The notes beneath the pieces are model-generated. The model was not told the origin of the DNA and did no database searches. It saw nothing but the letters and a program-made list of their open reading frames with translations. A stretch of DNA of 63,947 bases, filler included, from Globobulimina sp. (taxonomy: Eukaryota), in NCBI GenBank assembly GCA_003354225.1. It is 23 parts of 23 records of this genome, joined end to end, with 100 filler letters (N's around TTAATTAATTAA, not from the genome) between each part and the next. Parts side by side here need not be neighbours in the genome. Positions count along the whole stretch, not along the records: positions 41,783 to 44,466 come from PIVH01005362.1; 22 more parts are not named here. The stretch is one strand, 5' to 3'. Every line of letters begins with the position of its first letter. Positions within the stretch are counted from its first letter, which is position 1. Of this stretch, positions 1,338-50,034 are shown piece by piece. The translations under genes and the position numbers were made by a program.

Positions 1338-2688
1338 GTGGAAAAAACATTGAAAACCATTAAATTAGTTCAGATGAACTTCAAATTCAAAATATTTACA
1401 GAAAATTCATCATCGTGTCATATCCCTTGTGGCGGCGATGGCGACGATATTGATGATGACACCGATGAAGATGACGATGATATCGATGATGATGACGATA
1501 AGTCACAATATGATGCAAACAGATCAATCATTGAAAACTGCAGTCATTTAAACAGAATAATTGAGAGCTTAAAATATTATGAAACATTGGATGTTAAACA
1601 TAATAAATCAAACAGAGAAAAATTAATTAAATTTGAAGCGTGTTATAAAAATATGATAAATGATTATATACATTTAATACAGCATCATATGCAATATTTA
1701 GAAGATATTCATGATTGCTTAATTGCTATGGATAAAAATTATATTTGCAATTTGAAAGAATGTGATTTGAGCATACGACATTATGAGAGGAGAAGATTAG
1801 AGACCAAAACCTATTCAATTATTGAAGAAAAACGAGACGAAGACGATGCTGTCATTAATTTCTGTGTCGATTTCTTTGATGGATTACACTTTTTATTGTA
1901 TCATTTAACCGATATTGGTTATAGGGTTAAAGAGGAAGACATTCAGAAGGAAATTAATAATGACACCAAAGATATTAAGAATGAGGGAAATGTTTTATGT
2001 TATGATCGAAGATCGGCAGCAATGTCAAGAATAATTAAAAAGAAAAAAAAACAACACAAACAATTTCAAGAACCAGAAAATGACAAATTTACGATTCAAG
2101 TTAAACCCACACATAACGATGACATTAACGGTATGTTTTTCAAACTCCGCTGCATTTTTTGTGTACATTATTATACTTATTTTTTGTTGCCATTTTTTGT
2201 TGAATTCTTACCTATGCATATACATTATACAGATATGCCATTCGTGGATACGTTGATTCAAGCGATGTCAGACACAAATCCACACATATTTGAAGATTGG
2301 ATGTTGGAGAAGGTGAGAGAAATGGTGGAAGATGATGACTATGATTCTGAATCTATCCAAATGGATATATTATATCCACACTATGATCATAAACAATCCA
2401 ATATTTACCAATTTCTTCTTGATTATACAGATTGTGACGAAGCAGTCAAACAATACAATGCTCTCAAACAATATATTTTGAATGCTCAAGGAATGTTTCT
2501 ATTGGTTTTTGTTTGATTATGCTCATTATATATATATTTAGTGTCGCTATCTTCATTTAGTATGGGACTTCCCTTCTTCTATTGGGAATATTATAAAACT
2601 GCAACAATTGCAGATTTAAATGAAACGGCTTGCAAATTTGGAGTTAATTATAATGATTTACAAGGATTTTCGCCGAGTGACTTGTATG
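1338..2688 (+). CDS. N-terminal part of an expanded ART-fold protein family member (spliced, 3' truncated)
   Basis: Motifs shared with 41783-44039: RIIESLKYY, DYIHLIQHH, C-x3-C-x4-RH, FDGLHFLLYH, YDSESIQMDI, FSMGLPFFYW; introns 2131-2232 and 2491-2541. Confidence 0.7.
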
Positions 2689-3174: not shown

Positions 3175-4864
3175 ATGGCAGTCATAGAAATCGTAGCTAT
3201 AACATACATATCAATACATACTGTAATATTTACCGCAACATTCTGCTTGATAGCACGAAGCAGTTTGCCAGAGGGCTCCGGTTTGTGTTCAAAAGCATTC
3301 TTCAACAAACTACGTCAAACGTTTACGCAACGACGCACATTGGCCGCGTTCAGCATATTACATTTTGTTGATGTTGGATTGGATTTTTCTGTGATGTTTG
3401 GTTGGTATTTTGAACAAAATGCATTCCGTAAAGAAATATCCTACAATGGCTCATTATTATTATTTATGATAATCTTGCATACAATTTCAAAAATAACTTC
3501 TTCATTATATATTTACGGCGTTACCAGAGCAATATTACCCACAATCTTACAATTCTTTGATCTCGACATATATTACGAAATGTATTTCGATCAGAATTGC
3601 ACCAAAATGCATATGGACATGAAAATTGAGCAACTCTACAGATCCTTTGCTGTCATGCAATCGTTTCCAATCAGCATAATGCAAACATATTTATTGGTAC
3701 ATACCATGCATTATTATACTATACATCCGTCCTCATCTAACACACATAACATATATAGGTTGCGTACCAAACCGTGGCTAAAGACCAGCTTCTGGACAAC
3801 AGTGACTTTAGTTACATCCCATGGACGTTTGCGTCATTATTAGCCTCACTTTTATTCATCCTCTCGCTCCAAATAAACCATGACGCCAAATTCTTAAACA
3901 TGAAGGACAAATATATGAATGTCGGTATGCCCAAATGGTTAATTCGTGTTTTGTTCAGAACGTTTGAATTGTTGTCACGTATATTGCTGTTGACTTACAT
4001 TTGGTTGTTGTACGGAGTGATAGCTCCGATTACAATATTGACCCTGGAGTGGATATTCCAAATATATAATCATTACAGGAAAGAGCGGTACGACAACTCC
4101 TCCGATCATTCCATTCGAATGTGGCGAAAACAAAATAAGTTCTTCCTATGGCCTGCAGTCATGGATGAAATCATTTCTTTTTGGAACTTTGATTGGAAAT
4201 TACCTGCTTCCAATCCACTAAAACAACGCACCTTTGATGTTGTCGATATTTTACAAGGATGGACTTTTGCGTCATTCATTTATGGCAATAAAACCATTCG
4301 CAGATTGACCAACGAATGTCCTCCAGTTTAGTATATACATTTTATTATGTTTTTACATGACAAAAATGATCGAACCTGTTTTCAGTGTGATTGTAAACTG
4401 CCAATGGATGAATATTGGACCACTGCTTTTGACCCTTTGCAGGCGAATATTAACATACAGATCGTGGACAAATCGCTAACTTTAGAGAATGATGCGTCTA
4501 TTACAGAGAAACGTGCATCGATATTAACGCCGAAGTGTTCCTCTTGCAACGCTTTGGTGGCGATAAAGTCGCATTATTTTCGGTGTCCCACCTTCTTACG
4601 ATCCGGCAGTATCGATGAGGCGACGGAGACGCAGAAAATCACCAAACATGGCCGCTATTTATGCATCGAGTGTGGTTATGCGCGCATGACCTATTTGCCG
4701 TTTTTATTTGTGTACTCTCGAAATATATTTACATGGATTTATATGGCATTGTTTACAGTATTTGCGAGCTTCTTGGATATAAAATGCAGTTTGTTGTGTA
4801 TTGATGGTGGCACTGCATATCATGAAAGCGGCTACAAATCGAGAATATTTTTGGTCGGCATGGC
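3175..4864 (+). CDS. Multi-pass membrane protein, XK-related-like, with Cys-rich insert
   Basis: Three ORFs join in frame through GT-AG introns 3697-3758 and 4326-4385; hydrophobic helices; VLFRTFELLSRILLL resembles the XK-family motif. Confidence 0.55.
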
Positions 4865-5344
4865 CTGTCATTTGTTGAGTCCGCTCTTGACCAAGGCCGT
4901 CGGCCTGAGTTAACCGGTGGTGGTCTAATCCGTAGTCTCGGCGGCTGGAGTGAGATAAAAAAAATGCGTATCGAGGGGCAGGATCGGATCAAGGGTGATC
5001 AGCGGATTCTCGGGGATGGTGATTTTGTTAATGCTGTCCTTTCCCTGACCGACGAAAAATACTCACGGCAGCAAGAGCTGGCAACACAGGGATATAATTT
5101 TGACCGGGTGGTTGAGAGAGTTGCCTCGATTTATAATATCAAGCCAGAAGATATACTGAAAAAAGGAAGGCAGAAACAGAGATCAGCTGCACGCAGTTTA
5201 TTATGCTTTTGGGCTGTGAGAGAATTGGGCTTGTCCTTGAAAGATGTTTCTGAGCGGCTTGGTATGAGTTCACCCGGAATAAGTTATTCCGTCCAAAAAG
5301 GTGAAAAGATAGCAGATGAACACAGCCTGCATCTTCTCGAATAG
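4865..5344 (+). mobile_element. Bacterial RAYT/IS200-like Y1 transposase, C-terminal fragment with HTH
   Basis: FVESALDQGRRPELTGGGLIRSLGGW ... DQRILGDGDFV ... ARSLLCFWAVRELG is typical of deltaproteobacterial RAYT-like transposases; abrupt GC rise. Confidence 0.8.
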
Positions 5345-6355: not shown

Positions 6356-6477
6356 TTTGAGGGCAGTATTTAAAATTTAATATATTTATTTTGTACTACA
6401 GATAAGTAGTAGAGATTTTTTAACATAAAACTTTTTGACTATTGGCTGACTATTTAAAGTAAATCCAGCTGTCAACA

Positions 6478-8022
6478 ATGGCAGAAACATATCATAAAAA
6501 TCGTACATTTCAACAAGAAATGAAATTCATTTACCATCAAAAAGAGAACACCAACCTCTTCACCATCGACAAAGGCTTTGTCCCAAACATGCGCGTTCCC
6601 GGTAAATTTTACGTAAACTCCTCATTGGAGAAGATCGTCTTTGACGAGTTGCGTGATCATTGCCGCCGTGGCGCATACGGTGGTTTTTTACCCGCCGTCA
6701 AACAAATCGCAAATGTGGCCGGCTTGCCCGGCATTGTCAAACATTCCATCGCTATGCCCGACGTCCATGCCGGTTATGGCTTTGCCATTGGCAACGTAGC
6801 CGCCTTTGATATGAGCGATCCATTGGCCGTCATCTCGCCCGGCGGCGTTGGCTTCGACATCAATTGCGGTGTACGCCTCATCCGTACCAATTTGATGTAC
6901 AAAGACATTGAAAACATCCAAGAGTCGCTGGCCCAAACTTTATTTGACCATATTCCCGTCGGCGTGGGCAGCAAAGGCATCATTCCCACCACCCCCAAAG
7001 ACTTGCAACAGGCGTTGGAAATGGGAATGGATTGGTCCATCCGCGAAGGCTATGCCTGGCCCGAAGACAAGGAACATTGCGAGGAATATGGTCGTATGCT
7101 GGGCGCCAACGCGTGCAAAGTCAGCAAACGCGCACACAAACGCGGCCTGCCACAGTTAGGCACGTTGGGCGCCGGCAACCATTACATCGAAATCCAGCGC
7201 GTAGCCGAAATCTATGACCGTTTCGCCGCTAAAAAAATGGGCATTTTCACCGAAAACCAAGTCTGTGTCATGATCCATAGTGGTTCGCGCGGCTTAGGAC
7301 ACCAAGTGGCGACTGACGCATTGGTGAAAATGGAGAAGGCGATGGCGAGGGACAGCATCCATGTAAATGACCGGCAGTTAGCTTGTGCGCGGATTAACAG
7401 CGAGGAGGGCATCGATTATATGCAATCCATGTCCGCTGCGGCCAATTTTGCCTTTGTGAACCGTACCAGTATGACCTTTCTGACGCGGCAGGCGTTTCAA
7501 AAGATATTCAAACCGTACACTGCGGACGAATTGGACATGCATATTATATATGATGTATCGCATAATATTGCCAAAGTGGAGCAGCATATCGTTGATGGCC
7601 GATTGATGAAGTTATTGGTGCATCGGAAGGGGTCGACGCGCGCCTTCCCGCCGCATCATCCATTGATACCGGTGGATTATCAGTTGATTGGGCAGCCGGT
7701 GCTGATTGGCGGGACAATGGGCACTTGTTCTTATGTGTTGACCGGGACTAAGACGGGGATGAAGGAAACGTTTGGCTCGACGTGTCATGGAGCGGGCAGA
7801 AGTATGTCGCGCAATAAGTCGAGAAAGGTGTTGGATTATAAAAATGTGTTGAAGAACTTGGAGAAGAATAATATTTCGATCCGGATCGCGTCGCCTAAGT
7901 TGGTGATGGAGGAGGCGCCGGAGAGCTATAAGGATGTGACTGCAGTGGTGGATACTTGTCACGCGGCCGGCATATCCAAGAAGTGTATAAAATTGGTGCC
8001 TTGCGCCGTGATTAAGGGATAG
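6478..8022 (+). CDS. RTCB: RNA-splicing ligase RtcB, eukaryotic type, intronless
   Basis: [93 protein letters not shown] is the eukaryotic form. Confidence 0.97.
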
Positions 8023-19145: not shown

Positions 19146-19874
19146 TCCTTTTTTTGCATTTGTACACAACTTATCTCACTTGACTTATCTCACAACTTAT
19201 CTCAACTTTCAATACTAGGATTCGAATACTAGGTCAACTTCGAATACTAGTTGAAAACCACTCTAGCTAACCCAAACACCTTGCCAATCACAAAGAAGTG
19301 TTTAGAAGTTTAAGCCTAAAAAGTCAACTGTGTAGTCTACAAAAAGCGAATGCGCAGAAAGGAAACGTTTGTAATCGCATTTATTAGTATGTTGTGTACA
19401 CAGTANNNNNNNNNNNNNNNNNNNNNNNNNNNNNNNNNNNNNNNNNNNNTTAATTAATTAANNNNNNNNNNNNNNNNNNNNNNNNNNNNNNNNNNNNNNN
19501 NNNNNCTGAATAAGGTGAATGAGTGTCCAGAGTACAATGCCAGAATTATACAAAAGATCTTTACAATGGGGTACTCTTTGGCCAAAAATATTAACGGTAC
19601 TTGGCTAAGCCAGTCATTGAAGGAAGGAATGTCATTGTTTCATCTACAACTTCACTATGAAATAATTATATCCAGTGCTTGGTTTGTCTATGTTTAAAAT
19701 TGACTTGTATTAGGGCTAACTGTAAACCAAATATGTTGGCCTTGTACTTTGAATACCGGTAAATGGATCAATGTCCCCTGCATGACCTATTCCCCCCAAG
19801 TATTGCCCCCCACTCCCACCCTGAGAACCATGTCATAGTCCTTTCACACTCGGCTACAACGCTTCTTTATAGAT

Positions 19875-20462
19875 GCAGATGTTGCACTGCATGGCTTCGA
19901 TTTATTTTTAACGGATATCGGGGACAAATATTTCGTACAAATCAACTCTTCCAATGCTTTCAATCTGTTAAAAAATGTTCAAACCAACGATGTAACAAAA
20001 GAAGACGAAGAAAAATACATCAAGGAAAAAAATAGAATTGCCACCTTATATAAAACAAAAGTAGATGTAACCGGCTTACCAAGTTTGATGGATATTGAAT
20101 TCGAATCCGATGTATGGAAAAAATGGGGCGATAAATGCTTGAGCTGCGGTAGCTGTGCAATGGTCTGTCCGACTTGTTATTGTTATGCAGTTGACGAAAA
20201 AATCGATGTCTCTTTAAAACATGCCTCAAAACAAAGAACGCTTTATTCGTGTAACTTGGTAGATTTCGCCGAGGTAGCCGGAGGACACAATTTCAGACCA
20301 AAATCGGAAAGCAGACTAAAATATCGTTTTTACCATCAACACAGAGGATTCGTAGAAAGCTATGATGAGCCTAAATGCGTAGGATGCAACAGATGTGGAC
20401 GGGCGTGCCCGGCCGGCATTAATCCGGTGGATGTAATCAACGATTTAATAATGAATCAGTGA
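19875..20462 (+). CDS. Bacterial 4Fe-4S sulfhydrogenase beta / AsrA-like subunit, C-terminal fragment
   Basis: [16 protein letters not shown] ... [17 protein letters not shown] ... VAGGHNFR ... [16 protein letters not shown]. Confidence 0.88.
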
Positions 20463-22077
20463 ATAAATTTAATCAAATGACGCTGTCTAATTATAATTCT
20501 TTTAGTTTTGGTTATTGTTTTTATTATTGGCACAGTTTCAAATATAATGAATGCGTCGATAGCAACAACCCAGGCTACAGATTTTGTGATTTTTACGTTG
20601 GTAAAAAATATAACTCATTGAAAGAAGAATTAATTCATCAAAATATTAATCCTCAACAGTGGGCAAATGAACATCGTAAAGCTGCCACTCTGAAACAAAC
20701 GAATCATTGTAAAACAATGAAAGCTAATTTAAAAAAAGGAGAAGATATATTTGTTTATGGTATTGAAAAAGGAGCAGTAATCACTACAAATCATCTCATT
20801 TCCATCATATTCTACTGCGCGGCTATAATAATTTACAATATACCTTATGTGAAACATTCAGACGATTAGACGTAGAACAATATGATACATCTACCCATGA
20901 AGGAAAAGGGTTTCTTGCCTCGTTAAGAGAGCAAGTACAAGAAAACAAGGAAAGCTACACTTCGCTCAAAAAGAGAAACAGCAGTTTTCATCATTTGAGC
21001 AAGTATCTATTTGAAGCAGTCAATATTTTCTCCAAACCAGCGCATGAACAGGACATTGGAACATTTTATCATGGCGTAACACAAGAATTTGTGTTCAATG
21101 ATATGAATTGTACCATGAACCAACCATTTTCAACCACCAGTTCTTGGGCTGTGGCAGTGAATTTTGCGCAGAAAACAGGACTGGTTTTAGAACTTCGAAG
21201 TGGAGCTTTTTCGCGTTATTTTGATTGTTGCTGGATCTCAGATTTTCCAAATGAACGAGAATTATTATTTATGGGCACCAGAGAAGCGTTGACATTCATG
21301 AACATTACAAATGTATCAAAAGGAGAGAATTATAGATTATTTGTAACAGCAATATCAATTATTGCGAGTGTTGCCGATGGCTCAGGTTTTGTTTGTGATA
21401 ATGCAATTATACAACAGTTAAATGCATCTTATAATAAATTGGAAGCAGCAACGGTTGGGATGTCAGGTAAAATCGATTCGAAATTATCGTCAAAATGTAG
21501 GTTGTACCCTAACTTTTACGGAGCAAAGCCAATCGGAGCAGGAGAAAAATGGTGGACAATTAAACTAATTGAACATGAATTAAGTAGATATTATCCACAG
21601 AAGTATGAGAAATGTGCTGCTCTGAATTGGTATATTGATCAATTATTACATAATGTTTGCATAAAGAAACTTAATATTTGTTTCGATAAACAATTGATGG
21701 ATGTCGAGATGACCAAATATTTCTATCAAGGCGGGTATGGGGGATATGTATTTTTGAAACATTTATTTTGCGAAAAGGAGTATGAAATGATCAAATTAGA
21801 GTTTATATATTCATTATTTCCAAATATAAAAATGATTGGACTCAAGGGAATGTCATATATATCGCCGTTGTGTTTGGATGATGCCTTTGAATATTTGCAA
21901 AATAATATGAATACCAGTATTCGGTATATTTTTTTTACGTTAAATAAAAAGTCAAAAAATGTTGGTTCGCTTGAAACATTGGCAAATGCAGATGAATATC
22001 AACAAAAGTTTGCAACAATAGGATGCAGTGTTGAATGTACAAAAGAAACCATAGGGATAAAAAACATGAGATATTAA
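20459..22077 (+). CDS. ART-fold family protein, C-terminal part; 2-nt frameshift at 20819-20820
   Basis: FYHG ... [15 protein letters not shown] ... GLVLEL ... [13 protein letters not shown]; removing an extra GC restores [20 protein letters not shown], matching paralogue IILYTDWTELCTAFSKTFRK. Confidence 0.7.
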
Positions 22078-33330: not shown

Positions 33331-33470
33331 NNNNNNNNNNNNNNNNNNNNNNNNNNNNNNNNNNNNNNNNNNNNTTAATTAATTAANNNNNNNNNNNNNN
33401 NNNNNNNNNNNNNNNNNNNNNNNNNNNNNNATAATAAGAATAAGCGACCATCCTCAAACCTCTTCAATTT

Positions 33471-36114
33471 ATGATGGATGGCCCCAAGCAATCACACAGT
33501 CATTTTAGTAGTCATCGCAATGACCTCTCTTGCGGTGATGGTAATAATTCAGATGAGGCCGTTAGTTATTGCAATAATTCTATGTTAGAAGACGTAGTAA
33601 CTAGCAAATGTACAAAGTATTGTTCGATTAATAAAATTGTTTTAAATGAGCACTGTGGAAATAGCAATATCTGCGGTGTTCAGCAAGAAAATCAAAATGA
33701 AAGTGATACAGATTCGATTTTAGATCAAATTAAATATGAATATGACATAAAAAATGATATGTTATTAACTCGCGAAAAAGGATTATTAATTTGTCAATGG
33801 AATGTAGATGGATTCACAGTTAATGTCAGATCGCATATTCATTATATTGTTCTGACTAAAAAACCGGACATATTCCTATTGCAGGAAACGTATAAATTTT
33901 ACAATGAGAATGAAAGTAATTGGACAGTGAAAATAAAGAATTATAAGACTGTCACAATGAAAGACAAAGGATTTGGAAAAGTAATTATTTTAATACGTAA
34001 TGGGATACACCACGAAAGGATTAATATTAAATTCAAACATAATATGCAAATTGATAAAAAAATTGAGAATTTGAATGAGAATGACGTTGAGAGTAAAATG
34101 CAAAGGAAGTTATTATTGATGTCAAAATTGTATTGTTTATCATTGAAAGTTTATGATAATGACATGGGCCAAGCGTTCATTGTCAGTAATTATTATCGTC
34201 CGCAGAATGGCGAACCGGGTGCAAGGATTGAGACATTTACGCAGTATTTGGAGATCTTATTAGCAACAAAGAATTATGCGTCGTTTCCACTGTTTATTGG
34301 AGGCGATATGAACGCACATAATCATGCATGGTTTGATGGAGTTATACGGCCTTCGCCAGCCAGTAAATGTGGATCGTATTTGGCGGATTGGCTCTATGAT
34401 AAAAAATGGACTATTTTGAATGACAGAAGTCCGACGAGACAGAGAAAGGAGCAGCAGACTGCCCCGGATGTTACGTTTATAAATGATAAGTCGAAGGAGG
34501 AAGATTGGAATTACTGGGCAGAGGATTTTACGCGAGAAGATTCAGAAAGTTATTACTCAGATCATTTAGTTTTATTTTCTTTTTATAGTAAAGGGAAACT
34601 GTACGAAGAAGAGGTGCCGGAATTTGCAATAAGAACTGGGACAGACAGAGATTGGGATGAATGGAAAGTAAAGTTAGGAGAGAATGTGGATGAATGGTAT
34701 GATATTTATGGAGAACAGCTTAATAAATTGATAACGCATTATTTGGACATATATGGCAATGGTAACTGCGATGTAAATAGGAAACATTTATTAGATTTCG
34801 TTGGATTGACAAAAAATGATGTTTTAGATGCGGTCGGTGACTTTTTTAAGCATCGAATAGTGGATACTTCGATCGATATATTGGGTTTAAGAAAAAAAAC
34901 AATTGGAAATGAGAAGCCGTGGCTTACGAAGGAGATGAAAGAAGCATTGGGAGATTATGTCTGTTATAGAAACAGATTTAAGCTGTTTAGCAAAAGAAAA
35001 AAGAAGACAATGAAGCATGTATTGGTCGAAAAGAAGAGGATTTGTGATGATTTATGTGAGTGTGGGAGGAGAGCGTGGATAAAAGATGAAATCAGGAATA
35101 TTAGCAATGATGGGAGAATGCCATGGAAACAGATAAATAATATAATTAAATATGATAACAATGCCACAAAAAGTATCCCAGTGTGGTATAATGAGAATGG
35201 TACGATAAATGCAGTAAAATCACGCGACAAAGCCGAGAATTATATGGCGTATCTGCACAGGTTCGATGATGACGAGATAGCAAACGAGAAGGAGGGGGAG
35301 GTAAAGAATGATGAGTTTGAGAGGATTTTAGATGAATATAATCAAGAAAATAAAATTAAATTTGGCACGGAACGGCATGCGGCGGCGTTGAAAGAAGTAA
35401 ATTTAATTTTGGATGAGGGTGAAATTGAGCCACTTATCATGTCATTTAAAAGAGGAAAAGCGAACAACAGCGACAAATCAAATTATATATTGCTGCAAAA
35501 TGGTATTGAAATATTGAAGAAAGGGCTTTATTTATGTTATAATGCATTATTTATTTTGGGCATTAGAGAGATATCGATGAATATAAGGGATATTACAGTT
35601 ATCCTAAAATCTGGCAAACCGGCAAAATATATGGACAGCTACAGGCCAGTCTCGTTGCTGTCGAGTTGCAGCAATCCGTATGATAAATGGATGGCGATTA
35701 AATATTTGAACTACGGCATAAAAATGGAAATAATTAAACCGATGCATTTTGGCTTTGTGAAAGGGTTAGGATGTACCGATGCGATTGCATTTATTATTGA
35801 GCGTATATGGAATAATCGGATAAAAAATGAGAATACGCACTTATTATTTATTGATTTTAAGGCAGCATTTGATACCCTTCAACATAAGATTATTATTGAA
35901 TGTATGAGGATAAATATTGGAATTAATGGATTTGCGTTGGATTATTTGTATGTCGCATTAGAATTTAGGTGGGGACGGGTAAAAATCTATGGGTTTTATT
36001 GTCAATGGAAACAGGATATCTGTGGCGTACCACAGGGATGGCCGCCATCGCCAATCGTGTTTATATTCATTACGATCGAGTTTGACGCGGTGAACGGATT
36101 AAAAATAGGCATAT
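33471..36114 (+). mobile_element. Non-LTR retrotransposon ORF2: APE endonuclease + reverse transcriptase (3' truncated)
   Basis: CQWNVDG, DIFLLQET, NYYRP, GGDMNAH, APDVTF, SDHLVL; SYRPVSLLS, FGFVKGLGCTDAI, FIDFKAAFD, GVPQGWPPSP. Confidence 0.95.
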
Positions 36115-41782: not shown

Positions 41783-44039
41783 AAAAAGATATTCACCTTC
41801 ACCACCAAATGTACTCAACCATGAACAGGAAAATGTTTTTAAATAATTATACCTTGGCATGCCACGCATGCTGAGCTCAATCACAATCCCTTCTTCTCCA
41901 GCAAATCGATACGCTATTTCAATTTGTCTGGTTGTACTGGTTGGGCCTGACAATCGGATATTAAATTCAGGCATCACCATAGCAAAAGACATGCCACAAT
42001 AAAATGACTCTTGTTGCGTTGCAGCATATTTTTTTTGGACAGCATAATCCCCAAATAATTCCACAGTCTCACGCAATAATCTCGACCAATTTGCAAATTG
42101 TCGGTGTCTGTTTATTATCAATGCAATTGGTTCATAAATATGTATTTTCCTAAATGTTTTTGAGAATGCTGTACATAATTCCGTCCAATCTGTGTAAAGT
42201 ATGATTGACAACAGATTGGACACTCTCACTTCTCGGCCATTCTTTATGTTATAATGCAGTGGCGTATACAATGAAGAACTTGTTTCTGCTTTTAATTTCC
42301 TAGCACGTGGTGTGTCGATGTATTCATTTGCTTTAACCAATGAATGCTTAAATTGATTTATATTCAACGGATGTATTGAATTATGCAATATTTCAGCTTT
42401 AATATTAATGAATTTCGCTTCAACAAATAATTGATGCATGTCATAACCACCATGATCATTCAAATTGTGCACATCGTTATCAACTTCATTTTTAATATGT
42501 TTCGTACGGTAATGCTCCCAATAATAAAACCGAAAACCAGTCGAAAATAAATGTGCATGAACTGTTTAAATTGTTTGTTTCCAAAGGTGAACAAATTAAA
42601 TTTAAGATAAAAATAAAAGTAAAAGTACATTGACCTTTTAATGTGACAAAGTATTTCTTCATCATCTCATATTTGACTGCACTGAAAAACCTTACAATAT
42701 TTGATTGCGTTCCACTGTGCATAATATCTGCTTGTATCGCATCTGAATCATATTCATGTTTCTCAAAACATCTCATTATTTCAACCGCCTCTGCCAAACT
42801 TGTGCTACTTTTCATTTGTTGATATAATCCGTCAATAAAGGTATAATTTTCTGCTTTAGCCATATCAATGTTGAATTTAGTATTTGTTGCAAATCTCGGT
42901 ATTTTGTTCAATAGAACTTTTTTTTTGTTAATAATTTTAGATAATAATGCAAATGCATTGTCTTTATATGTCATATGTTCAACATCCTCATCATCCTCAT
43001 CATCATCTTGATATTTCTCAGCAACTTCCTCCTTTCTATATATTCTGTAACCAAAGTCGTATTGATGTAACATATAACAATGAATTCCATCAAATAAATC
43101 ACGAATGAATGTAAATTCCACTTCAAAGTCTCCTCTGCCATCAACATCATAAATGTTACTCTCTTCGAGTTGGGCAACCTCAACAGGCTCAACTTGTTCC
43201 TCGAACGTTAACCAATCATCTTCAGAACCTTCCTCTTCATCCGCATCTAATTCTACGTCGGTGGTATTACTTTGTATTGTTGTAATTGGATACGAATATA
43301 ACGAATCATTCTTTTTTATTTCCACTTCTGGAGATTGACAAATTTGTTTATAATCGTCCTCATTGAATTGAACTGTGCAATTTTCATCTTTGGTTCTGTT
43401 CCTGTTATGTCTCGCGGACAATACACAGTCGATCACATTGCATTTATTTAGAATTGATTTGTTGTCCATGATAAAATCGTATATGTCATCCATTTGGGCG
43501 TGATGCTCTTGTATTATATGAATAAAATCTAATAATAATCCTTTATATGTTTCTTTATAAAATTGGACCAGTTTAAGTTGGCCGTTTTTATGTCGGATAT
43601 TTAATGATTGATAATATTTCATAGCATTTACTATTCTCACTTTGGCTTTGCACGACGCGATATTGCTACAATCAGTTGGGAAATCAGTGAAAATCGTAAA
43701 ATCAATATTGATATTTATGGGGATTTGCGTGGTATGTTTTGGTGGTACACCGTGCTTATAACAATATTTTATTACTTTAAATACTTTATAATCACGAGAA
43801 TAATTTTTACCATCTTTGTTTGTATCAATTAATGGGAAATTATCATCCATATTTGTAAATAGGCACTCGGTTGGTTTTACATCATCGCCTAATTCCAAGT
43901 CTATGTCTTGCTCATCAAACTCACCATCGATCACAAACAACAGAAACTTCCCATCATCATTTTCATCGTAATAGTCATTTCGACCGCAATTTGCGTAATA
44001 AATGCCCAGTGCCCTATCAATTCTCTCAAATAGCTCCAT
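41783..44039 (-). CDS. Most complete ART-fold family member (2 exons, 3' truncated)
   Basis: Intron at about 42563-42633 joins the 515-aa and 245-aa ORFs (HLFSTGFRFYYW); FYCGMS ... GPTSTT ... AYRFA ... GIVIEL ... WLSTFGGEGEYLF. Confidence 0.75.
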
Positions 44040-47481: not shown

Positions 47482-50034
47482 ATGGTGACCAAATGGAGGA
47501 GTACATCTCTCAAACATAAAATCGTTCGATGTGACTTCTGCAATACTTATAACCATATTAACTGCTTTAACCTCAATGACTTATATTTAATTAAACCGAA
47601 ATGGCAGTCATATAAACATTGGTGTATGCAATGCAGCTGTCCTTATCCTATTATTTACTTATTTAATGGCTTCGCATCCCCGGATACCTTTAATAGACAA
47701 ACTGCGACCCATTTATTCATCAATTTGGTCAATAATCCATTACGCATTTCCAATATTGATTTGTTTTTAGACAGTGCTGACACTGTGTTTCTCTCATTTA
47801 TGAATTGTTTATTTCATCAAGACATTAAATCTATTTCCCCGGCCCCCTCATCTCGATTATCCAATGACAACCATCCACAATCATTATCTCACAGATCCTC
47901 AGCCAGCTCTCATCCATCATTTACTATTTCAAATAAGTCATCATTAACATCTGTATCCTATCACTCGTTGGACACTTTAACTGATAATTGTTTAAATGAT
48001 AAATCAATATTAACTTATCAACGATCATCAAGCCGCAGCATCAAATTAGCAATTAAACTCACACAACAACACCAATGTAATTCATTTATGGAGCAAGACC
48101 CTCATATCAATACCCTCAGTAACCACGCATATGATACTCCTGCTGAAAATGAACATAAATCTGAATTAATGGACACACATTCATCAAGAAGAACTACCAA
48201 AATCGTTTCAACGCTGAAACGCCATCGTTTGTTATTGCAGATGCGGATGAAACGCGCCATGAAATTGGCTGTGATCAATACAATTAAACATATCTTTTTA
48301 TCTGACAGAGCACCATTGATTCGCCATATTTTCCACCATTGATTATTTGATATCAAGGACCCTGAACTTATTCCACCATTGATAAACCACCATATTTTAC
48401 CATACCATCCCACCTTAAATCAGATCAAAGCGCGACGACAGTTTGCGAATCACCGCCGTCGACGTCTCCTCAAAAAGCATAAAAAGAAAATTCGATTCAT
48501 ATTTTTTAAAGAAGCTTCGCGCGTCGCTCCCACCCAGAAACCTACCATTTTGATACCCGATTATCAGCCCTGCGACGCGTTAGTATCGGTTCTTCAATTA
48601 AGCCTCAAATTTGTTAGCACTCCGCAACAGTTTGACTTTAACAACCTCCATATTGGCTTGTTAAATATGGCTCGTAGCGCAAGGCTTCAATGGATTTTTA
48701 ATAAACCTGACGATGATGACGCACGTTTCAATTCTAATAATGATGATGGTGCCGAAGAAAAAGGTGTGCGCCGCCCAAAGATCCCTAAAAATGATACCAT
48801 TTGGTACAACAAAATCCGCTCTATCTTCACTCATTGGGAGAATAACCACATTTCCTTTCAAGATGACCCCCAGAGCGGCTTTAATAAAAATGTTGTCTTT
48901 CAAGGTGGAATCAAGAAAGTTATAGAACACACCGGCAAAATGAATCTAGAGGCCTTCCTTAAAATGGTCATCACCGAATATCTCGAGGAAGCCCAAGCCA
49001 TTCAACGTAACTCCATATTTCCCCGCAACCTCTCCCAGGAACAGGAGGATGCCATCAATGACATCATCGACCATCCAGCAATCATTCAGCGACCGACCGA
49101 TAAAACAGGTAATTATGTGTTTACAACCAATGATTTATATTATTCGCAGTCCAGAAAAACGATATTAAAACAAAATATGGTGCCGCTGACTGATTTTAGT
49201 ATATCCGACTTTGCCTTTAAGTTTAACCAGAAACTATTATTCTGGTTCGAAAGAGGTGAATTATCATTTGAATGGATTGAATTATTAAAAGCAAAGTATC
49301 CCTACAATTATCATTATAAACTATCAAACATTTATTGCCAATATAAAGACCACAAACCAGATCCAAATAAACAGCGCGCGATTAACTCTTCGTGTGGCAC
49401 CATATTAAAACCGACAATGCAGATGATTTTATTTCACTTATTACCACAATGGAAAGCACTCAATTATCAGATTCAGGATACCAAGGCATTAATGTTAATC
49501 TTGATGGAATTAAACGATTTACCATCACTCCACGAAGCCGCGTTGAACGGCACTTTGATGATATTTTCCATGGACGTTGTGGGAATGTACCCATCTATTT
49601 TACATAAGTTAAGCCTTTTAATGTTGTGTTATGTATACAATTTAGTTCGAGAACTTAGTTATTCCCATCCTTCTCCTGAATGTATTCGCGACTTATTATA
49701 TTTCTGCATTAAAAACAACGTTTCTGACTTTAATGGAGAAACATTTATTCCAATCAGCGGTATCGGCCAAGGAGTTGACTTTGCGGCACAATTATGCGAC
49801 TTTGTTATGATAATATTTGATGTTTTATTACGAAATAAAATATGGGTCAAACAAGTCTGCGACTTAGACTTATTATATTCGGGCCGTTACCGTGATGATT
49901 ACTTATTAATTGCCATTGGTGAATTATTTGATGTTTTTATGTTACGCTCCGCAATGAATCACTTATTTACTTTCAATCCAATGCATATCAATCCGATTAA
50001 CGACATCTTCGATGAATATAATTTTAATTTAGGC
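47482..50034 (+). mobile_element. Penelope-like element reverse transcriptase with N-terminal PHD-like finger; in-frame TGA at 48340-48342
   Basis: LSLKFVSTP, QRPTDKTGNYV, YCQYKDHKP ... RAINS, SMDVVGMYPSI, FNGETF ... GIGQG, RYRDDYL; CDFC-x4-HINC ... WCMQC. Confidence 0.85.

Follow-up and report, generated by a model that had tools for sequence, protein, structure and literature searches.

Does the gene at positions 41783-44039 (minus strand) of the window encode an ADP-ribosyltransferase (ART) whose catalytic arginine has been replaced, and could such a protein still modify its targets? The window, i.e., the whole stretch of DNA analysed here (63,947 nucleotides), is made up of 23 unrelated contigs of ~2.7 kb each, with N spacers between them, from the fragmented Globobulimina sp. 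assembly (70 Mb, 48370 contigs). Papers are cited by PMC number.

The locus and its paralogues in the window

The original prediction described three divergent paralogues on 3 of the 23 contigs, and the motifs are all present in the sequence at the three loci. The N-terminal module motifs said to be shared by two of them are likewise there, although the Cys spacing is C-x4-C and not C-x3-C. A chance resemblance can be dismissed, as the ART exon of the main gene finds at least 152 matches in its own genome at E ≤ 0.001. The proportion of 3 in 23 is not to be extrapolated as a family frequency, however; among contigs of similar or greater length, 92 of 5369 were listed (1.7%, a lower bound).

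The main gene has two exons and reads without a stop for 728 residues, as far as the contig end (Table 1). Exon 1 specifies a small N-terminal module, a His/Cys module split by an acidic insert of ~100 residues, an NKF motif, and a SAM-like module. Motifs read from the minus strand are DFIHIIQEH, C-x4-C-x4-RH, DGIHCYMLH, FSTGFRFYYW, FYCG, PTSTT, AYRFA, GIVIEL, and WLSTFGGEGEYLF. Since the contig ends three residues past the catalytic Glu, this locus lacks both the C-terminal domain and the final ART strand. The N-terminal module gave 38 matches in the genome among 58 candidates scored; by eye, it also occurs near the end of P0019, and no family match was obtained.

Evidence of a spliced transcript of the main gene was found in a near-identical organism (public run X4). 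Contig 18 of this run, whose library kind is not on record, covers 42639-42760 and then 42206-42563 with two letters between, a spacing equal to the length expected once the 73-nt intron is removed; the joint was read from flank coverage and is not in the joint table. Contig 24 of public run X5 spans the intron, which is retained there.

Table 1. Coordinates of features of the main gene and of its two paralogues in the window.
Feature	Position	Strand	Basis or remark
Exon 1	42635..44039	(-)	ATG at 44039; limits from ORF and spliced run contig
Intron, 73 nt, GT-AG	42562..42634	(-)	Joins two frames without a stop
Exon 2: ART domain, FSTGFRFYYW to GEGEYLF	41783..42561	(-)	47% identical to L002
N-terminal module, ~75 residues	43810..44039	(-)	Recurs elsewhere in genome; no Pfam match above cut-off
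His/Cys helical module, candidate metal (Zn) site	43043..43670	(-)	Conserved ligand-type residues
Five-helix EYD(S/T)DA module, weakly SAM-like	42640..42845	(-)	Paralogue model
Helix-3 Arg in S-x-T-F-R, second NAD-phosphate Arg of ARTC-type enzymes	42149..42151	(-)	Kept
Strand-1 Cys of F-Y-C-G, at place of R-S-E Arg	41996..41998	(-)	Strand E186-190 of L002 model
Strand-2 Ser of P-T-S-T-T	41936..41938	(-)	Alignment tallies
E-x-E motif (E-G-E)	41792..41800	(-)	Alignment tallies
His-type paralogue, FYHG, His at 21070-21072, with C-terminal domain	20459..22077	(+)	ORF reading
Paralogue with His/Cys and SAM-like modules	1338..2688	(+)	Contig ends before ART core

The paralogue at 1338-2688 carries DYIHLIQHH, C-x4-C-x4-RH, DGLHFLLYH, and FSMGLPFFYW, and introns were inferred at 2131-2232 and 2491-2541; its His/Cys module gave 104 matches in the genome. 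Read by hand, the only frame-keeping intron at 2491-2541 has a GA donor, not GT, for which a non-canonical donor, an error, or a pseudogene are possible explanations. The core of the His-type paralogue at 20459-22077 gave at least 151 matches in the genome. In view of a frameshift near 20818, the absence of the N-terminal modules, and a bacterial-type gene directly in front of it, this copy may be a pseudogene or lie on a chimeric contig. The bacterial-type gene (19839-20462, plus strand) is of the 4Fe-4S dicluster kind, matching sulfhydrogenase beta and AsrA best but at scores under the cut-offs, and its 3' end runs into the first part of the ART copy; the contig is probably chimeric, with gene transfer as the alternative. 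On another contig, an ORF of bacterial look (4826-5344, plus strand) with a weak match to the C-terminal region of DnaA abuts eukaryote-like ORFs, possibly a second chimera. By eye, long plus-strand ORFs at 33444-36113 and 48343-50034 look like retroelement proteins (an endonuclease plus reverse transcriptase and a Penelope-like RT), and an ORF at 6463-8022 (plus strand) resembles an RtcB RNA ligase.

Fold and active-site pattern of the catalytic domain

Sequence searches did not place the main family among known ARTs. Pfam and NCBIfam gave no ART match for it in the window ORFs, Pfam gave nothing with alignments A1 and A5, the cut-off of PF01129 was not reached by the window ORFs or by 25 aligned members, and no match came from the PDB when its sequences were searched with the exon, the N-terminal part, or A1, A2, and A5. 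Language-model neighbours were PF01129 and PF03496 (0.96), with a recognition value below the usual level that is weak by itself; the nearest feature neighbours in the ESM Atlas were rotifer, haptophyte, and giant-virus ART clusters (0.94-0.96). The fold was assigned through L002, a complete paralogue 47% identical to exon 2 of the main gene, for which AlphaFold2 gave a model with pLDDT 92.1 and pTM 0.91. When this model was compared with ART folds by Foldseek, as had been proposed at the outset for the window copies, rat ART2.2 came first (E 2.9e-4) and ART structures filled nearly all the rows listed. The VIA structural search agreed (ART2.2: Z 13.0, rmsd 3.3, 193 residues aligned), followed by the Tre1 entry 6drh (11.2), XopAI (10.8), HopU1 (10.4), and ExoS (9.2), with PARP and diphtheria-type (ARTD) chains at Z 6.1 or lower; viral ARTs also match the model structurally. 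The motif residues of L002 lie in strands 186-190 and 207-210 and in the loop into 256-259, and R-S-E enzymes have the same strand placement of the three residues (PMC7827354). As judged from this model, the main family has the ADP-ribosyltransferase fold, with a split beta-sheet core, an NAD cleft, and motifs on strands 1, 2, and 5, in keeping with the R-S-E/ARTC-type assignment originally made. Residues 1-281 of the model align to residues 7-209 of ART2.2, N-terminal helical lobe included, and since this match begins at the FSxG..FYYW motif, the motif opens the N-terminal lobe of the ART domain; its earlier reading as a linker was abandoned.

The likeness to ART2.2 (PDB 1gxy, PF01129), which is the best match over the whole domain with the Ser and catalytic Glu in place, contrasts with an identity of 12%, the absence of the strand-1 Arg in 97 of 99 domains, and the lack of a Pfam ART match. 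Unlike vertebrate ARTC ecto-enzymes, 89 of 90 long members have no signal peptide, and the family adds His/Cys, SAM-like, and C-terminal domains and runs to hundreds of copies. The bacterial mono-ARTs Tre1 (6drh), HopU1 (3u0j), ExoS, and Vis fall in the same fold subgroup (Z 8.1-11.2) and share E-x-E; however, these are secreted effectors that carry the strand-1 Arg (PMC6829252; Vis alignment), whereas the foraminiferan genes are intron-bearing, eukaryotic, and multi-domain.

The active-site pattern was tallied in 99 distinct domains from fetched loci of this genome, a sample steered by the queries and not the whole family, and in 151 domains drawn from the top-scoring public representatives. 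At strand 1, the former have His (64), Cys (27), Thr (2), and Arg (2), the remaining four being a gap and three residues of other kinds; the latter have Cys (104), Thr (18), Ser (16), His (8), and no Arg. The strand-2 Ser (STS) is present in 99/99 own domains and 150/151 representatives, the first Glu of E-x-E in 98/98 covered and 149/151, and the second, catalytic Glu on strand 5 in 98/98 covered and 151/151. Replacement of Arg by His or Cys with retention of Ser and E-x-E, as first noticed in the window copies, thus holds across both sets, and E-x-E is conserved in every sampled paralogue of this genome in which it is covered. The helix-3 residue is Arg in 80 and Lys in 4 of 86 covered own domains and Arg in 144 of 151 representatives, its equivalence resting on transitive alignment, by way of a weak profile match (probability 50%, E 1.6e-4), to the Glu in the VLE of XopAI. 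Among 78 sequences (23-49% identity), the only invariant columns are the Ser and the first Glu. The pattern is not that of the H-Y-E class, as strand 1 has His in 64/99 domains yet strand 2 has Ser and not Tyr; nor is it the triple loss, with its resulting acidic cleft, of the XopAI type, as of arom-R, aliph-R, and the STS Ser the main family lacks arom-R only.

In a tree built by a quick method, in which the root is unsure and long outgroup branches meet, Cys types fall mostly in one group (support 81), His types are more scattered, and one Arg member lies within a His group; His therefore appears to be the older state. An Arg or Lys six residues before the Ser occurs in 24/27 Cys-type and 22/64 His-type domains. 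A compensating role for this Arg in the Cys clade was considered and set aside, since it is confounded with phylogeny: the residue is one of ~50 columns that differ between the clades, and so is not evidence of compensation.

Accompanying modules, size of the family, and relatives

The typical order of domains is a variable domain, the His/Cys module, the SAM-like module (not always present), the ART domain, and a C-terminal alpha/beta domain, conserved over ~200 residues, for which no match was found. The His/Cys module follows the pattern C-x5-7-C, D(Y/F)xHxxxxH, C-x4-C-x4-RH, DxxHxxxxHxxDxGxR. In 89 representatives picked without regard to the module, its last two His are conserved in 89/89 and its second Cys pair in 86/88 and 88/88, and the His pair is invariant over 99 rows; a count of 89/90 members carrying the module was discarded as circular, the profile having been built from the same proteins. 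A model of the upstream region of one paralogue (L039) is all-helical (pLDDT 87 overall, about 90 in the His/Cys module), so that the conserved helical module postulated from the window copies is borne out. The His/Cys part of this model gave no usable Atlas match and no Foldseek match at E ≤ 0.001, and the VIA rows barely covered it, being filled by the SAM-like part. On the strength of its conserved ligand-type residues, the module is a candidate for binding a metal such as Zn. For the EYD(S/T)DA module (model residues 218-294), the best match was the Sans SAM (Z 6.5, rmsd 2.5, 64 residues aligned), followed by the tankyrase SAM (Z 6.1-6.2), scores below the tool's reliable level, and Pfam SAM had no match in the window ORFs. 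By eye, one or both modules are missing, or ligands have been lost, in some members; the SAM-like module is absent from several (e.g., L016, L017, L040, L063).

Other Pfam domains were found on 13 of 37 long members scanned, these being predicted proteins in which mis-joins are possible, and comprise PH, Ras/Roc, IBR, C2-copine, ricin-B, fibronectin III, PUB, kinase, PITH, WH1, CAP-Gly, and MYND. By eye, a 1523-residue frame at L031:562-5130 (minus strand) combines the His/Cys module and ART domain with ankyrin-like and Hsp70-like regions. A simple hydropathy scan found a signal-like N-terminus in 1 of 90 long members and a TM-like stretch in 9 of 90, and the hydropathy maximum of the window protein was 0.86. 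Given the single signal-like start, the family is probably mostly cytosolic, and predation by secretion, a role that had been entertained, is unlikely.

The family is very large and lineage-restricted, as predicted. Members lie on at least 308 contigs of this genome in the union of four protein searches, each of which scored the best ~150 of 419-560 candidates and yielded at least 147-149 contigs. A Chao-type estimate of 364 was rejected, as each search scored only its best ~150 candidates and the searches are not independent. Most members are 25-50% identical, and so are not alleles; their reading frames stay open over long stretches, and their introns lie at differing places. Stops or frameshifts interrupt some copies, and 7 of 145 members carry two ART domains. 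Against public 50%-identity representatives, a 78-member profile gave 5877 matches at E ≤ 0.001, the weakest of which may include ordinary ARTs, and 2813 at E ≤ 1e-30; the best 150 were inspected. Species labels were available for 20 of 30 homologues looked up, all from the foraminifera Bolivina argentea or Nonionella stella, from which a rotaliid foraminifer is the probable source of the genome. Searches of viral contigs with the A1 alignment or a sister-family protein, which were short-pattern searches of low sensitivity, revealed no sequence relative. In 11 of 12 computable paralogue pairs dN/dS was 0.21-0.80, and in one 75-codon pair it was 1.1 (a thirteenth pair was saturated). These values suggest purifying selection, loosely applied; none of the 12 was significantly above 1, and an arms race is thus not demonstrated.

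Relatives of the family occur in the same genome. A sister family (42 matches) is also Arg-less, with YTG, YSG, or YSA at strand 1; its members (L108, L113, L142-L158; contigs such as C3231, C11291, and C7123) show an S-W motif and a different His/Cys-rich N-terminal module that ends in YRHPPR, and contig C1259 carries one gene from each family. Ordinary YRG-type ARTs are present as well, and the 13 PF01129 matches in the genome comprise these and sister-family members. Two proteins that match PF01129 (L111, L112) contain ankyrin-like repeats, have FIG or FVG at strand 1, and represent another Arg-less ART lineage. The ADP-ribosylglycohydrolase (ARH) family, PF03747, has 24 matches on 21 contigs (L101-L103 and 18 others), and the three that were read are all eukaryote-like; L102 has an N-terminal Cys/His finger that by eye looks like zf-UBP.

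Proposed function and its alternatives

From sequence and models, we give about an even chance to the view that this is a foraminiferan mega-family of cytosolic, regulated, arginine-directed mono-ARTs with an ARTC (ART2.2/Tre1/HopU1-like) fold. NAD+ would still be bound, through backbone contacts together with the Ser and the Arg on helix 3, and His or Cys at strand 1 would make this binding weaker or conditional; the second Glu would cleave NAD+ and the first would position the arginine acceptor. The His/Cys module would bind a metal such as Zn, and the time and place of enzyme action would be set by this module jointly with the SAM-like one and the shuffled domains. ARH-family hydrolases of the same genome would reverse the mark, although the ARH genes could also be explained by the ordinary YRG-type ARTs. 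Birth, death, and domain shuffling would fit cell-autonomous defence or control of intracellular microbes, which is the weakest step. A bolder form, possible but rather doubtful, is that of a rotaliid intracellular signalling or immune layer with hundreds of active H/C-S-ExE ARTs (a hybrid of the two classical triads), gating by the His/Cys module, taken as a metal binder with a new fold, and by a SAM-like clustering module, targeting by shuffled domains, and an expanded set of ARH erasers. Active transferases are favoured because three of the four NAD-related features are kept and the fourth is often His, the normal NAD-binding residue at strand 1 of H-Y-E enzymes (PMC7827354); conservation of the STS Ser and helix-3 Arg is easier to explain if nucleotide still binds. 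In ARTs, NAD is bound with the help of the strand-1 Arg or His and cleaved with that of the Glu (PMC7827354), and R-S-EXE marks arginine specificity, the hydrolase form of rat ART2 having QXE instead (PMC3102197). By this analogy, E-x-E argues for an arginine acceptor over the NADase activity or unusual acceptor that had been suggested. Against an active enzyme, the strand-1 Arg has been reported to matter for NAD binding in the R-S-E class (PMC7827354, PMC6829252), and its position here is occupied variously by His, Cys, Thr, or Ser, the kind of drift expected of a relaxed site.

It is this drift, seen also in the YTG, YSG, or YSA of the sister family, that gives some weight to an unlikely but substantial alternative, that the proteins are pseudoenzymes like XopAI of Xanthomonas (6k94, 6kly), which turn over no NAD+ and act as readers or decoys, E-x-E binding arginine peptides or ADP-ribosylated proteins. 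XopAI, the third-best structural match (Z 10.8), has an ART fold, has lost the strand-1 Arg (FTG), keeps the E-x-E/ARTT motif, and binds an Arg peptide; it seems unable to bind NAD+ and was proposed not to be a transferase (PMC6829252), so conservation of E-x-E alone does not demonstrate catalysis. However, XopAI also lacks the aliph-R Arg and the STS Ser (VLE and AAS at these places), whereas the foraminiferan family keeps the Arg and S-T-[ST] almost always, and its strand-1 residue is mostly His or Cys, not Thr. Distinctly less probable is that the proteins are activated NADases or producers of ADP-ribose signals, in which a cue at the N-terminal modules, perhaps through SAM-type clustering, would trigger NAD+ hydrolysis, with the death or arrest of the cell, or of one of its compartments, as the outcome. 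The position of the SAM-like helical module just ahead of the ART-fold domain is reminiscent of SARM1 and tankyrase; the SAM match is middling, though, and tankyrase, unlike the foraminiferan family, is of the H-Y-E class. Rat ART2, whose fold the domain resembles, is a hydrolase, but has Gln in that form where the first Glu is invariant here (PMC3102197), and several members lack the SAM-like module altogether.

Two further explanations carry little weight. A selfish, self-amplifying gene family, for which AACRNL offers a precedent (PMC12957317), or a set of mostly decaying duplicates would agree with the very high copy number and with the stops or frameshifts of some copies, but is very improbable given the divergence of most copies, their long open frames and variously placed introns, and the dN/dS below 1 in 11 of 12 pairs; nor was a transposase noticed beside the loci in a casual, unsystematic look. 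That a fragmented assembly or bacterial contamination inflates a small family is scarcely credible, even though one window copy abuts a bacterial-type gene. The copies contain spliceosomal introns and are too divergent for alleles, thousands of clusters occur in other data sets, and the named matches come from two foraminiferan species; this explanation is refuted for the whole family, although single contigs may be chimeric.

A full-text literature search, which did not cover subscription papers, found no description of a foraminiferan Arg-less ART family, including in the available parts of PMC3417536 and PMC12957317, and the available part of PMC9503650 does not mention foraminifera or Rhizaria. 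The family is thus apparently a real, large, and so far undescribed variant of the R-S-E ART class. If the bolder form of the active-transferase proposal is true, it would amount to a code of arginine ADP-ribosylation as extensive as a family of kinases or NLRs. If its members are active, the Arg of the R-S-E triad would be replaceable on a large scale, and the family would be, to our knowledge, among the largest ART expansions. They would also be cytosolic arginine-type writers, a kind called uncharacterised by a 2010 review (PMC3102197). If they are inactive, they would instead make up a huge eukaryotic set of readers built on the ART fold, for which XopAI was the only close precedent identified. 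In both cases, a large share of foraminiferan gene content lies in a family that Pfam and NCBIfam do not annotate, and its sequences and models suggest a signalling or defence system of large size that has gone unrecognised.
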